Below, piece by piece: positions 262 through 26,988 of a stretch of DNA of 64,000 bases (its first letter is position 1; every line of letters begins with the position of its first letter). The DNA is taken from assembly GCF_988243305.1 (NCBI RefSeq), contig NZ_OZ547136.1. The stretch is one strand, 5' to 3'. The notes under the pieces are model-generated. The model worked only from the letters and a program-made list of their open reading frames with translations. It searched no databases and was not told the DNA's origin. A program made the position numbers and the translations under genes.

Positions 262-618
262 ATGGTTACACTTTACGGCATCAAAAATTGTGACACCATT
301 AAAAAGGCTCGCCGTTGGTTGGAAGCCAATAACATCGATTATCGTTTTCATGATTACCGCGTCGATGGGCTGGACAGCGAATTATTGAACGGTTTTATCA
401 ACGAATTAGGCTGGGAAGCGTTACTCAACACCCGTGGTACAACCTGGCGTAAACTGGACGAAACCACCCGCAATAAAATCATCGATGCGGCCTCTGCGGC
501 GGCATTAATGACTGAAATGCCTGCAATTATCAAACGTCCATTGCTCTGCGCGCCTGGTAAGCCTATGCTGCTGGGTTTCAGTCATTCCAGTTATCAGCAA
601 TTTTTCCATGAGGTGTAG
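262..618 (+). CDS. yffB: ArsC/Spx-family protein YffB
   Basis: 118-aa ORF beginning [21 protein letters not shown] with an ArsC-family N-terminal Cys motif; sits immediately upstream of dapE as in E. coli. Confidence 0.85.
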
Positions 619-621
619 TCT

Positions 622-1749
622 ATGTCGTGCCCGGTTATTGAGCTGACACAACAGCTTATTCGCCGCCCTTCCCTGAGTCCTGATGACGCAGGATGCCAGG
701 CTTTGTTGATTGAACGTTTGCAGGCGATCGGTTTTACCGTTGAACGCATGGATTTTGCCGATACGCAGAATTTTTGGGCATGGCGTGGGCAAGGTGAAAC
801 GTTGGCCTTTGCCGGGCATACCGACGTGGTGCCGCCTGGCGACGCCGATCGTTGGATCAATCCGCCGTTTGAACCCACCATTCGTGATGGCATGTTATTC
901 GGGCGCGGTGCGGCAGATATGAAAGGCTCGCTGGCGGCGATGGTGGTAGCGGCAGAACGCTTTGTCGCACAACATCCCAACCATACGGGGCGACTGGCAT
1001 TTCTGATCACTTCTGATGAAGAAGCCAGTGCCCATAACGGTACGGTAAAAGTCGTCGAAGCGTTGATGGCACGTAATGAGCGTCTCGATTACTGCCTGGT
1101 TGGCGAACCGTCGAGTATCGAAGTGGTAGGTGATGTGGTGAAAAATGGTCGTCGCGGATCGTTAACCTGCAACCTTACTATTCATGGCGTGCAGGGGCAT
1201 GTTGCCTACCCACATCTGGCTGACAATCCGGTACATCGCGCAGCACCTTTCCTTAATGAATTAGTGGCTATTGAGTGGGATCAGGGCAATGAATTCTTCC
1301 CGGCGACCAGTATGCAGATTGCCAATATTCAGGCGGGAACGGGCAGTAACAACGTTATTCCGGGTGAACTGTTTGTGCAGTTTAACTTCCGCTTCAGCAC
1401 CGAACTGACTGATGAGATGATCAAAGCGCAGGTACTTGCCCTGCTTGAAAAACATCAACTGCGCTATACGGTGGATTGGTGGCTTTCCGGGCAGCCATTT
1501 TTGACCGCGCGCGGTAAACTGGTGGATGCGGTCGTTAACGCGGTTGAGCACTATAATGAAATTAAACCGCAGCTACTGACCACAGGCGGAACGTCCGACG
1601 GGCGCTTTATTGCCCGCATGGGGGCGCAGGTGGTGGAACTCGGGCCGGTCAATGCCACTATTCATAAAATTAATGAATGTGTGAACGCTGCTGACCTGCA
1701 GCTACTTGCCCGTATGTATCAACGTATCATGGAACAGCTCGTCGCCTGA
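622..1749 (+). CDS. dapE: N-succinyl-L,L-diaminopimelate desuccinylase (M20 peptidase family)
   Basis: 375-aa ORF with M20 metal-binding motifs ([19 protein letters not shown]); conserved position. Confidence 0.9.
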
Positions 1750-1776
1750 TGAGTGGTTCTGCAAGAGGAAATAAGC

Positions 1777-1977
1777 ATGGACTGGCTGGCTAAATATTGG
1801 TGGATTCTGGTGATTGTCTTTTTGGTAGGCGTCCTGCTGAACGTGATTAAAGATCTCAAGCGCGTCGACCATAAGAAATTTCTCGCCAACAAGCCGGAGC
1901 TTCCCCCGCATCGTGATTTCAACGATAAGTGGGACGATGACGACGACTGGCCGAAAAAGGATCAACCGAAGAAGTAA
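1777..1977 (+). CDS. ypfN: small membrane protein YpfN (UPF0370)
   Basis: ORF 1753..1977; probable start at the internal Met giving a 66-aa protein [21 protein letters not shown] with one TM helix and an acidic C-terminus. Confidence 0.7.
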
Positions 1978-1983
1978 GCTGAG

Positions 1984-2065
1984 CGGCCGGATAAGGCGTT
2001 AACGCCGCATCCGGCAATGGTGAACGATGCCTGATACGACGCATCACGCGTCTTATCAGGCCTAC
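1984..2065. repeat. REP/BIME-type repetitive extragenic palindromes (two units)
   Basis: gccggataaggcgttaacgccgcatccggca and gcctgatacgacgcatcacgcgtcttatcaggcctac, both imperfect palindromes of the E. coli REP type, between convergent ypfN and ypfH. Confidence 0.7.
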
Positions 2066-23867: not shown

Positions 23868-23870
23868 AGA

Positions 23871-24932
23871 TTATTCTTGCGCGATTTGCCCATCGGGCCA
23901 GGCGTGAATCACGGCTTTGATCAGCGTCGCCAATGGAATGGCGAAGAATACGCCCCAGAATCCCCACAAACCACCGAAGATCACTACTGATAAAATAATG
24001 ACCAGCGGATGCAGGTTAACCGCTTCGGAGAACAACACAGGTACTAACAGGTTGCCGTCCAGCGCCTGAATGATCAGATACACCGCGAAGCAGCTCCAGA
24101 ATTCCGTGCCAGCACCAAACTGGAATAGCGCCACGCCAACCACCGGAATGGTCACCACAAATGCACCAATGTACGGAATAAGTACCGAGAAGCCGACCAG
24201 CACCGCCAGCAGCAGCGAATAGTTCAGCCCGAAGAGTAAGAATCCCAGCCAGGTGGCGATCCCCACCACGATCATCTCCAGCACTTTGCCGCGGATATAG
24301 TTGGTGATTTGTTGATTCATCTCCTTCCATACCTGTCCTGCCAGTCCACGGTTACGTGGCAGCACCCGGCGAACGGCGTTCAGCATCTGCTCTTTGTCTT
24401 TCAGCAGGAAGAAGACCATCAATGGCACCAGCACCAGATAGACAGCTATGGTCAGCAAACCGACCAGCGAGGCGAGGGAAATTTTCACCACCGAATCGCC
24501 CATGGTCAGCATCCGACTGCGCATATTTTCGGCCATTGCATCAATAATGCCCGCATCCATCAACGCCGGATAGCGGCGCGGCAACGTGGCGGCAAAGTCA
24601 GAAAGCTTATTGAGCATCCCCGGCATATCGCGAATTAAGTAGATGCCCTGCTGCCAGGCGATAGGCAATACCACGAACGCCATCAGTAGCAATATACCGA
24701 CGAAAACCACCAATACAATCGACGTCGCCCAGCGGCGGGAGCAGCCAATAGATTGCAGGCGCACGGTTGGCCATTCCAGCAAATAGGCCAGCACAATAGC
24801 CACCAGCAACGGAGCAAGCAGGCCACTAAAGAAAAAGATAATGCCAAATCCGGCAACTAAAATAACCAGCAAGGCAATCGCTTCCGGGTCGCTAAAACGG
24901 CGGCGATACCATTGCATCAACATTTCGAGCAT
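23871..24932 (-). CDS. perM: AI-2E family putative permease PerM (YfgO)
   Basis: 353-aa polytopic membrane ORF; conserved synteny. Confidence 0.8.
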   Translation of the reverse strand: MLEMLMQWYRRRFSDPEAIALLVILVAGFGIIFFFSGLLAPLLVAIVLAYLLEWPTVRLQSIGCSRRWATSIVLVVFVGILLLMAFVVLPIAWQQGIYLIRDMPGMLNKLSDFAATLPRRYPALMDAGIIDAMAENMRSRMLTMGDSVVKISLASLVGLLTIAVYLVLVPLMVFFLLKDKEQMLNAVRRVLPRNRGLAGQVWKEMNQQITNYIRGKVLEMIVVGIATWLGFLLFGLNYSLLLAVLVGFSVLIPYIGAFVVTIPVVGVALFQFGAGTEFWSCFAVYLIIQALDGNLLVPVLFSEAVNLHPLVIILSVVIFGGLWGFWGVFFAIPLATLIKAVIHAWPDGQIAQE

Positions 24933-25144
24933 AAAGACCTTCCCTGAACCTCAAGAGCGGGATTGCGATCCGCAATTGTATCGAAATGTCACAAAAAAGA
25001 CTTCGCTTTTTATGACGGATTCAGGAAACTGAAAAGTCATTTGAGTGGGCTAATCTTCGCCGTTACACTCAAAGGCGGCGCGGTGGGAACGATATTTCAC
25101 AGTATCGGTCAAATGACTATCTTCAGAAATACAGGATAGAGGTT

Positions 25145-26608
25145 ATGTTCAGGCAGTTGAAAAAAAACCTGGTTGCAACCCTCATTGCTGCTATGACCAT
25201 TGGTCAGGTAGCCCCGGCGTTTGCCGACAGCGCAGACACCTTGCCGGATATGGGAACCTCCGCAGGAAGCACGCTTTCCATTGGTCAGGAAATGCAGATG
25301 GGCGACTATTATGTCCGCCAGTTACGCGGCAGCGCGCCGTTAATTAATGACCCGCTGTTAACGCAATATATTAATTCGCTGGGGATGCGTCTGGTTTCGC
25401 ATGCCAATTCGGTTAAGACACCGTTTCATTTCTTTCTGATCAACAACGACGAAATTAACGCCTTTGCTTTCTTTGGCGGCAACGTGGTGCTGCACTCTGC
25501 CCTGTTCCGTTATTCCGATAACGAAAGTCAACTGGCTTCAGTTATGGCGCACGAAATCTCCCACGTCACCCAACGTCACCTGGCGCGAGCGATGGAAGAT
25601 CAGCAGCGCAGCGCGCCGCTGACCTGGGTCGGCGCGTTAGGTTCTATTTTACTGGCGATGGCCAGTCCGCAGGCGGGGATGGCTGCGCTGACCGGTACAC
25701 TGGCGGGAACGCGCCAGGGGATGATCAGCTTCACCCAGCAAAATGAACAGGAAGCGGATCGCATTGGTATTCAGGTGCTGCAACGCTCAGGATTCGATCC
25801 GCAGGCGATGCCGACCTTCCTCGAAAAATTGCTCGATCAGGCGCGTTACTCCTCGCGTCCGCCGGAAATTTTATTGACTCACCCATTGCCGGAAAGTCGT
25901 CTGGCAGATGCCCGCAACCGTGCTAATCAGATGCGCCCGATGGTGGTGCAGTCGTCGGAAGATTTCTATCTGGCGAAAGCGCGCACACTGGGGATGTATA
26001 ATTCCGGACGTAACCAGCTCACCAGTGATTTGCTGGATGAATGGGCGAAAGGAAACGTTCGTCAGCAACGAGCGGCGCAATATGGTCGTGCTTTACAGGC
26101 GATGGAAGCCAATAAATACGACGAGGCGCGTAAAACGCTGCAACCGTTACTGGCGGCAGAACCTGGCAACGCATGGTATCTCGATCTGGCTACCGATATC
26201 GATCTTGGGCAAAACAAAGCCAATGAGGCGATCAATCGTCTGAAAAATGCCCGCGATTTACGCACCAATCCGGTGTTGCAGCTCAACCTGGCGAACGCTT
26301 ATCTGCAAGGCGGTCAACCACAAGAAGCGGCCAATATTCTGAATCGCTACACCTTTAATAATAAAGATGACAGCAACGGCTGGGATTTACTGGCACAGGC
26401 GGAAGCCGCGCTAAATAACCGCGATCAGGAACTGGCTGCGCGAGCAGAAGGTTATGCGCTCGCCGGACGACTCGATCAGGCCATTTCGCTGTTGAGTAGC
26501 GCCAGTTCGCAGGTGAAATTAGGCAGCCTGCAACAAGCGCGTTACGATGCGCGCATCGACCAGTTGCGCCAGCTGCAGGAACGCTTTAAGCCTTATACCA
26601 AGATGTAA
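25145..26608 (+). CDS. bepA: periplasmic beta-barrel assembly-enhancing protease BepA (M48 peptidase plus TPR)
   Basis: 487-aa ORF with a signal peptide, HEISH zinc motif and C-terminal TPR-like region. Confidence 0.9.
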
Positions 26609-26628
26609 TTCGCATTAAAGGAAGAACA

Positions 26629-26988
26629 ATGACCAAACAGGTAAAAATCTACCATAACCCACGCTGTTCAAAGAGCCGGGAAACGCTGAATCTGCTGAAA
26701 GAAAACGGCGTGGAGCCAGAAGTGGTGCTCTACCTTGAGACACCCGCCGATGCGGCAACGCTGCGTGATTTGCTGAAAATGCTGGGGATGAATAGCGCCC
26801 GTGAATTGATGCGCCAGAAAGAGGATCTTTATAAAGAACTGAACCTGGCTAACAGTTCGCTTAGCGAAGAGGCGCTGATTCAGGCAATGGTGGATAATCC
26901 GAAGCTAATGGAGCGCCCGATTGTGGTCGCGGATGGCAAAGCGCGGATTGGTCGTCCACCGGAGCAGGTACTGGAAATCGTGGGTTAA
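26629..26988 (+). CDS. yfgD: ArsC-family protein YfgD (arsenate reductase-like)
   Basis: 119-aa ORF with the ArsC-type N-terminus MTKQVKIYHNPRCSKSR. Confidence 0.85.
   Translation: MTKQVKIYHNPRCSKSRETLNLLKENGVEPEVVLYLETPADAATLRDLLKMLGMNSARELMRQKEDLYKELNLANSSLSEEALIQAMVDNPKLMERPIVVADGKARIGRPPEQVLEIVG

Follow-up and report, generated by a model that had tools for sequence, protein, structure and literature searches.

We analysed a 64-kb stretch of DNA (contig NZ_OZ547136.1; its whole length is called the window below), which comes from an Escherichia coli chromosome, for the two genes of the ArsC family that it carries, yffB and yfgD (Table 1). RefSeq names yffB 'ArsC family reductase', and yfgD, to give it its classical name, 'arsC: arsenate reductase (glutaredoxin)'. 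The stop codon of yffB (616–618) is followed after a gap of 3 bases by the start of dapE at 622, and 20 bases separate the end of bepA from yfgD, whose protein begins with MTKQVKIYHNPRCSKSR. An earlier note on this DNA had reported both open reading frames (ORFs) as ArsC-family genes and had quoted the cysteine motifs YGIKNCDT for YffB and YHNPRCSKSR for YfgD; we found both ORFs in place with both motifs, and family membership was borne out by profile scores well above the cut-off, as described next.

Table 1 Features of the window at and around yffB and yfgD.
Feature	Position	Strand	Basis and remarks
yffB	262..618	+	ORF, 118 amino acids; PF03960, NF008107 and TIGR01617 matches; single Cys (Cys10), YffB subfamily
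dapE (succinyl-diaminopimelate desuccinylase)	622..1749	+	ORF and annotation; operon partner of yffB
Sigma-E-like promoter match GGAACGA-N16-TCAAA	25086..25113	+	Upstream of bepA; by-eye reading, consensus match only
bepA (yfgC), periplasmic M48/tetratricopeptide-repeat (TPR) protease	25145..26608	+	ORF and annotation; first gene of bepA-yfgD operon
yfgD	26629..26988	+	ORF, 119 amino acids; putative glutaredoxin-type ArsC-family protein; clade motif HNPRCSKSR
Repetitive extragenic palindromic (REP)-type repeat, yfgD-hda intergenic	27018..27056	.	Sequence GCCGGATGCGACGCTTGCCGCGTCTTATCCGGCCTAC
hda, convergent with yfgD	27094..27840	-	ORF and annotation; conserved neighbour of yfgD-type genes
hyfABCDEFGHIJR-focB block	10205..23834, approximate	+	Coordinates from closest record NZ_OZ547043.1
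naRNA4 (RF02564)	1985-2062	+	Rfam 85.7 bits, gathering score 59.5; just downstream of ypfN

Both proteins matched the Pfam family ArsC, PF03960 (cut-off 24 bits), over profile positions 1–79 of 79, with 78.7 bits for YffB (E = 4e-22) and 92.7 bits for YfgD (E = 2e-26). Curated subfamily models separated them: YfgD passed the arsenate reductase equivalog TIGR00014 (162.1 bits; cut-off 106.05) and failed the Spx/MgsR subfamily model TIGR01617 (50 bits; cut-off 75), whereas YffB passed TIGR01617, which is named 'Spx/MgsR family RNA polymerase-binding regulatory protein' (116.5 bits), as well as the equivalog NF008107, 'ArsC family reductase' (227 bits; cut-off 121), and gave no match to TIGR00014 at E ≤ 0.001. 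Placement against ArsC and Spx/MgsR by curated models and alignment, a check that the earlier note had proposed, therefore put YfgD on the ArsC side and YffB on the Spx/MgsR side. The two proteins were 18% identical in a joint alignment, and BLASTP failed to align them even with E values up to 100 allowed; their families were nevertheless homologous by profile-profile comparison (hhalign probability 95.8%, E = 7e-9, 111 columns). With different curated subfamilies and an identity of 18%, they are therefore ancient paralogues and not a local pair, and by sequence they appear to have diverged long ago within the ArsC/Spx thioredoxin-like fold. The description 'paralogues within 27 kb' in the earlier note is thus right as to ancient homology and misleading as to a related local pair; membership of a common Pfam family does not make two genes such a pair.

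We then compared active-site residues in an alignment with R773 ArsC (the PDB 1i9d chain) and Bacillus subtilis Spx (a sequence exactly matching 3gfk). Across ArsC, YfgD-type proteins, YffB-type proteins and Spx, only C12, R94 and P95 (ArsC numbering) were invariant. The ArsC residues H8, C12, R16, R60, R94 and R107 correspond to H9, C13, R17, R62, R96 and R109 in YfgD, and to G6, C10, K14, N56, R92 and F106 in YffB. YfgD thus has the complete H-x3-C-x3-R motif together with the arginine triad, and these six residues were invariant in 16 diverse YfgD-type sequences. Two more invariant basic residues (R12 and K15) lie beside the cysteine, and the motif HNPRCSKSR was present in 112 of the 150 top-ranking cluster representatives. 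YffB retains only C10 and R92 of the ArsC catalytic set and lacks both the ArsC motif and the triad. Because two of the three arginines are missing, along with the histidine and the arginine of the ArsC motif, arsenate chemistry by YffB appears unlikely. YffB also reads C10-D-T-I13 where Spx reads C10-T-S-C13, so that the CxxC redox switch is absent and a single cysteine remains. The earlier label 'ArsC/Spx-type' for the cysteine motif is accordingly apt for the fold family and the N-terminal cysteine that both proteins have, but Spx carries CxxC and each protein here a single cysteine.

The neighbourhood of yffB was surveyed by a profile scan of one genome per species with a mixed alignment, which gave 80 loci, 78 of them with downstream room; an additional search for YffB homologues was seeded with the Brucella protein. 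The loci span Enterobacterales, Aeromonas, Alteromonadales, Oceanospirillales, Pseudomonadales, Methylococcaceae and Orbaceae. Neighbours were called from tblastn positions, with one locus in which yffB and dapE overlap (L073) corrected by hand and counted among the dapE loci. dapE lay directly downstream of yffB on the same strand in 63/78 loci (median gap 11 bp by tblastn), dapD took that place in 9/78 (TIGR03536, 566–607 bits), dapE stood at 300–640 bp in 3/78, and the remaining 3/78 had neither. In the nine dapD loci (L049, L054–L056, L061, L062, L072, L075 and L081), which come mainly from Oceanospirillales- and Pseudomonadales-like genomes, dapD begins ~30–160 bp 3′ of the yffB homologue, and dapE lies further along, at 1–4 kb, in four of the nine. 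Since dapE is swapped for dapD beside yffB, the gene tracks the succinylase branch of diaminopimelate (DAP) synthesis rather than one gene; it is linked to this branch and not to dapA. The proximity of yffB to dap genes is real, operonic and wide within Gammaproteobacteria. Apart from the structural and genetic work cited below, the literature found on yffB and yfgD concerns expression or regulation only; in Salmonella, yffB has been described as affected by Fur and repressed by SdsR, and a MarA site lies between it and ypfM. We also observed, 2–3 kb upstream of yffB and on the opposite strand in two Roseibium loci (L064 and L070), an ArgE-like M20 deacylase (NF005710, 491–500 bits), a relative of DapE, with a MepK (L,D-endopeptidase)-like fragment also near; this may be coincidence.

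The operon of yfgD is a different one. According to published work, bepA and yfgD form a bicistronic operon that depends on sigma-E (PMC7075262, PMC2731931), with conserved decay patterns (PMC7075262, PMC5927463, PMC2731931); simple scans for sigma-70 promoters and terminators around yffB and yfgD gave nothing above shuffled background. Expression data for yfgD comprise the sigma-E induction of bepA-yfgD, an increase in a Yersinia iscR deletion mutant (given as 2.0-fold), and changes in YfgD abundance in Salmonella under homoserine lactone treatment. In Enterobacterales-like loci, the gene immediately before yfgD-type genes is bepA; one of these loci is a contig (L082) with the order dapA-gcvR-bcp-AI-2E transporter-bepA-yfgD, then convergent hda-uraA-upp and purMN.

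A DNA-pattern scan of metagenomes for YHNPRCSKSR recovered 120 loci (L097–L216), all encoding a YfgD-type protein. Where enough sequence was available, wrbA, identified as NAD(P)H:quinone oxidoreductase (NF002999, 153–179 bits), followed the yfgD-type gene directly on the same strand at gaps of 3–74 bp (41/96 loci), Hda was encoded ≤3.5 kb downstream (12/40), PurM ≤6.5 kb downstream (6/22), and BepA directly upstream (7/97). Other recurrent neighbours were a BrkB/YihY-family membrane protein (22 loci, divergent upstream), a TlpA/ResA-like redoxin, DUF2069 and a peptide chain release factor (PCRF and RF-1 domains), besides others. The order yfgD-type gene followed by wrbA was also seen in L084, L085 and L091, stop and start codons often overlapping or nearly abutting, and wrbA is often followed in turn by DUF2069 and a convergent hda; this arrangement has been lost in E. 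coli. The proximity of yfgD to purine genes is real and reflects an old yfgD-(wrbA-DUF2069)-hda-(DUF2066)-purMN cluster. Linkage to arsR, arsB or acr3, which is typical of the family without defining it, was absent: no ars genes were found among the recurrent neighbour clusters of the 120 metagenomic loci (85 clusters with fewer than 3 members were left unscanned), in 8 further yfgD-type contexts, or in the annotation of the closest record, NZ_OZ547043.1, across the stretch matching the window. These surveys support the earlier observation that neither gene adjoins ars genes.

Taken together, these results suggest that YffB and YfgD are ancient relatives with the ArsC/Spx fold, each in an operon of its own and with their 26-kb spacing a matter of enterobacterial gene order alone, YfgD being a glutaredoxin-type ArsC and YffB a glutathione-dependent thiol reductase, a joint reading to which we give a probability of about 0.7. 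It builds on what we observed of family membership, conserved residues, gene spacing within the operons and conserved neighbourhoods, and from these we infer chemistry and substrates. In YfgD, Cys13 of the motif H9-x3-C13-x3-R17 would attack an oxyanion held by Arg62, Arg96 and Arg109, and glutathione and glutaredoxin would then resolve the adduct, as they do for R773 ArsC; the protein would be expressed from the sigma-E-dependent bepA-yfgD operon, in which its gene comes second. Arsenate is our best guess for its substrate, judging from its residues. YffB would be a single-cysteine glutathione-binding protein co-transcribed with dapE; its most likely activity is thiol reduction with glutathione, not reduction of arsenate.

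Several points weigh against this reading. The earlier note had remarked that the physiological substrates of the two proteins are not well established, and this agrees with the searchable literature, in which we found neither a biochemical assignment nor an enzyme assay of E. coli YfgD or YffB; the chemistry proposed here is therefore drawn only from residues and from the structures of orthologues. As late as 2025, a preprint listed YfgD as uncharacterised. The missing ars linkage and the extra invariant residues R12 and K15 could mean that YfgD acts on a substrate other than arsenate. E. coli strains without arsC are reportedly arsenate-sensitive despite retaining yfgD, and the multicopy rescue screen of Chrysostomou et al. 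(2015) is said to have yielded gstB rather than yfgD. For YffB, the 80 loci are phylogenetically redundant, more than half being Enterobacterales, so that the counts are not independent. Linkage to dap genes was, moreover, absent in the Alphaproteobacteria sampled, where yffB stands alone in Brucella, follows guaA in Microvirga, and has other contexts in Aquabacter and Roseibium; the linkage may thus not reflect functional dependence.

Among the alternatives, we consider it possible, if somewhat against the odds, that YfgD is a working second arsenate reductase behind ArsC-independent reduction, which would be constitutive or driven by envelope stress and outside ArsR control. The full catalytic set is conserved and the score exceeds the equivalog cut-off of TIGR00014, but the clade-specific motif carries extra basic residues, the yfgD-type loci surveyed (recurrent neighbour clusters and the 8 further contexts) had no ars linkage, and the searchable literature yielded no assay. 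The sensitivity reported for arsC-less strains and the recovery of GstB, not YfgD, as the multicopy suppressor, both mentioned above, also speak against it. On the other side stands an E. coli strain without arsC that still reduced >94% of 32 µM As(V) (PMC6176005). By the authors' account this strain had no other annotated arsenic determinant, and they proposed non-specific routes such as GstB (PMC6176005); YfgD is an obvious candidate for this activity.

Rather more doubtful is an accessory role for YffB in the succinylase branch, in which it might use glutathione to keep DapD/DapE reduced, or do the same for a thiol used or formed in the succinyl-CoA step, as cofactor or by-product. The gene lies directly 5′ of dapE or dapD in 72/78 informative gammaproteobacterial loci, with dapE at ≤640 bp in 3 more, the partner alternates between two enzymes of one branch, and YffB orthologues bind glutathione (PMC3169414); many of these loci, however, come from related genomes, the sampled Alphaproteobacteria lack the linkage, and no biochemical link is known. 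Also in favour, a yffB transposon insertion in Salmonella came from the same screen as insertions in the dapB promoter, and the authors give yffB as an operon member, written 'yffB-dapD' (PMC12561990), but polarity on dapE is the simplest way to read this phenotype. For multicopy suppressor plasmids with yffB-dapE, the effect was ascribed to dapE (PMC7648144).

A combined proposal, in which the two patterns of gene neighbourhood would point to genuine functions not yet described, the YfgD clade would be a housekeeping oxyanion/thiol reductase accounting for ArsC-independent arsenate reduction and YffB a glutathione-dependent helper of DapD/DapE, likewise seems unlikely to us as a whole. Its YfgD half draws on HNPRCSKSR, on the fact that no ars operons were seen, and on wrbA directly 3′ in ~43% of environmental loci.

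Far less probable is a regulatory role for YffB of the Spx/MgsR kind, in which it would bind RNA polymerase and tune transcription during thiol stress. YffB does exceed the TIGR01617 cut-off, it matches solved Spx structures (E = 5e-9 to 2e-5), and its TRGTTWRKL segment aligns with TRSKVFQKL of Spx. However, it has the single cysteine of C10-D-T-I instead of CxxC, lacks the Spx C-terminal tail, and fell far below the Spx-specific model NF002459 (42.9 bits; cut-off 123); an Spx-like mechanism was also judged unlikely by the authors of the Brucella structure (PMC3169414).

The closeness of yffB and yfgD to each other requires no functional account. No YfgD or BepA match lay within 10 kb of yffB outside Enterobacterales in the scan of yffB loci, and no YffB or DapE match was present in any of the 120 metagenomic YfgD-type loci. 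In Cedecea (L006) and Acerihabitans (L045), bepA starts ~10.2 kb downstream of the yffB start, which places yfgD ~11.6 kb from yffB, compared with 26.4 kb in the window; the difference comes largely from the hyf-focB block, and this block accounts for about half of the yffB–yfgD gap in E. coli. This block, the hyf hydrogenase-4 operon with hyfR and focB, lies between bcp and yfgO in E. coli and is absent from L082, where the order is otherwise the same. We conclude that the closeness is inherited enterobacterial gene order without functional meaning, and that the two genes lie in two unrelated neighbourhoods. The conserved proximity to purine and dap loci proposed in the earlier note is thus real for each gene separately (yffB with dapE/dapD, yfgD with wrbA/hda/purMN), but that of the genes to each other is confined to Enterobacterales. 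The PF03960 genes of E. coli K-12 are arsC, yfgD and yffB; if the window strain likewise has three, the chance that some pair falls within 26.4 kb is ~0.03, a post hoc figure. That figure, the common Pfam family and the common strand speak for a redundant pair arising from local duplication and kept close for co-regulation, an idea that is nonetheless hardly credible given the 18% identity with no BLASTP alignment, the differing subfamilies and active-site residues, the separate operons with different partners, the wide occurrence of both subfamilies as non-neighbours outside Enterobacterales, and a spacing that varies from ~11.6 to 26.4 kb mainly through the hyf block.

As a finding, the presence of the two genes is ordinary annotation that was already known: both are annotated in every E. 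coli genome, structures of orthologues have been solved, and both operons have been described. What modest interest the locus has is that RefSeq calls yfgD 'arsenate reductase (glutaredoxin)' although we found no published assay in the searchable literature, and that an arsenic-biosensor study of ArsC-independent arsenate reduction in E. coli did not consider yfgD (PMC6176005). The tight linkage of yffB with dapE/dapD, for its part, offers a clean hypothesis for YffB beside an antibiotic-target pathway.

Window bases 200–1100 were present in 5425 of 5426 complete E. coli genomes and were 100% identical to NZ_OZ547043.1, and bases 26500–27100 were 100% identical to strain 042 and others. The best-matching genomes thus differ at the two ends, so either no single listed record corresponds exactly to the window strain or the region has a mosaic make-up. 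A small indel between the window and NZ_OZ547043.1 is suggested around yfgD-hda, where the hda coordinates do not carry over, and a 601-base query spanning the REP-like palindrome found a median of 3 matching places per E. coli genome. naRNA4, the only Rfam match in the window, presumably derives from a REP element, and the match may simply be a REP copy. The annotation of NZ_OZ547043.1, and not the window sequence itself, further places an IS200/IS605 transposase beside guaA (matching window ~40065–40523) and, in the xseA-der interval (~45431–56803), an 8-kb adhesin, a SinI-family protein and the inverse autotransporter SinH. In the PDB search, matches of YfgD to designed pentatricopeptide-repeat proteins contained no qualifying stretch and were rejected as composition artefacts.

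Among known systems, YfgD resembles ArsC of plasmid R773 (1i9d), with which it is 38% identical (E = 4e-22 in the PDB search) and has in common the H-x3-C-x3-R motif and the triad of Arg60, Arg94 and Arg107. It differs in lacking the C-terminal tail of ~24 residues, in two short segments (HNPRCSKSR against HNPACGTSR in ArsC, and GRPP against CRPS), and in staying below the cut-off of 242 bits, with a score of 97, on NF007456, the model specific for E. coli ArsC; it also lies outside any ars operon, is under sigma-E rather than ArsR control, and has an arsenate activity that is putative. Its orthologues are the structural-genomics entries from Yersinia (3rdw, E = 3e-47) and Vibrio (3f0i, E = 4e-41), each named 'putative arsenate reductase', which match at full length with the same motif and length and show no notable difference; the searchable literature yielded no functional paper on either.

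YffB falls in the same fold family as the Spx/MgsR regulators of Firmicutes (1z3e, 3gfk) and on the same side of the split (TIGR01617), but it is ~22% identical to Spx, lacks CxxC, and ends ~13 residues before Spx in the alignment. FIG138056, 'a glutathione-dependent thiol reductase', is presumably the SEED/RAST label of YffB, and a literature search on this label found no paper. Solved orthologues of YffB were those of Brucella melitensis (2kok; 54% identical, E = 5e-36) and of Pseudomonas aeruginosa (1rw1; 49% identical, E = 6e-28), and all three have a single cysteine in G-x3-C-x3-K and have lost the arginine triad. The E. coli gene is in an operon with dapE, whereas that of Brucella stands alone. 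For the Brucella protein, in which the absence of the triad and the G-x3-C-x3-K motif were described, reduced glutathione shifted nuclear magnetic resonance signals beside the cysteine, and glutathione binding by the P. aeruginosa protein, detected by mass spectrometry, was cited in the same work (PMC3169414). The residue pattern that we observed in E. coli YffB agrees with this published structure, whose authors hypothesised a 'glutathione-dependent thiol reductase, substrate unknown' (PMC3169414).

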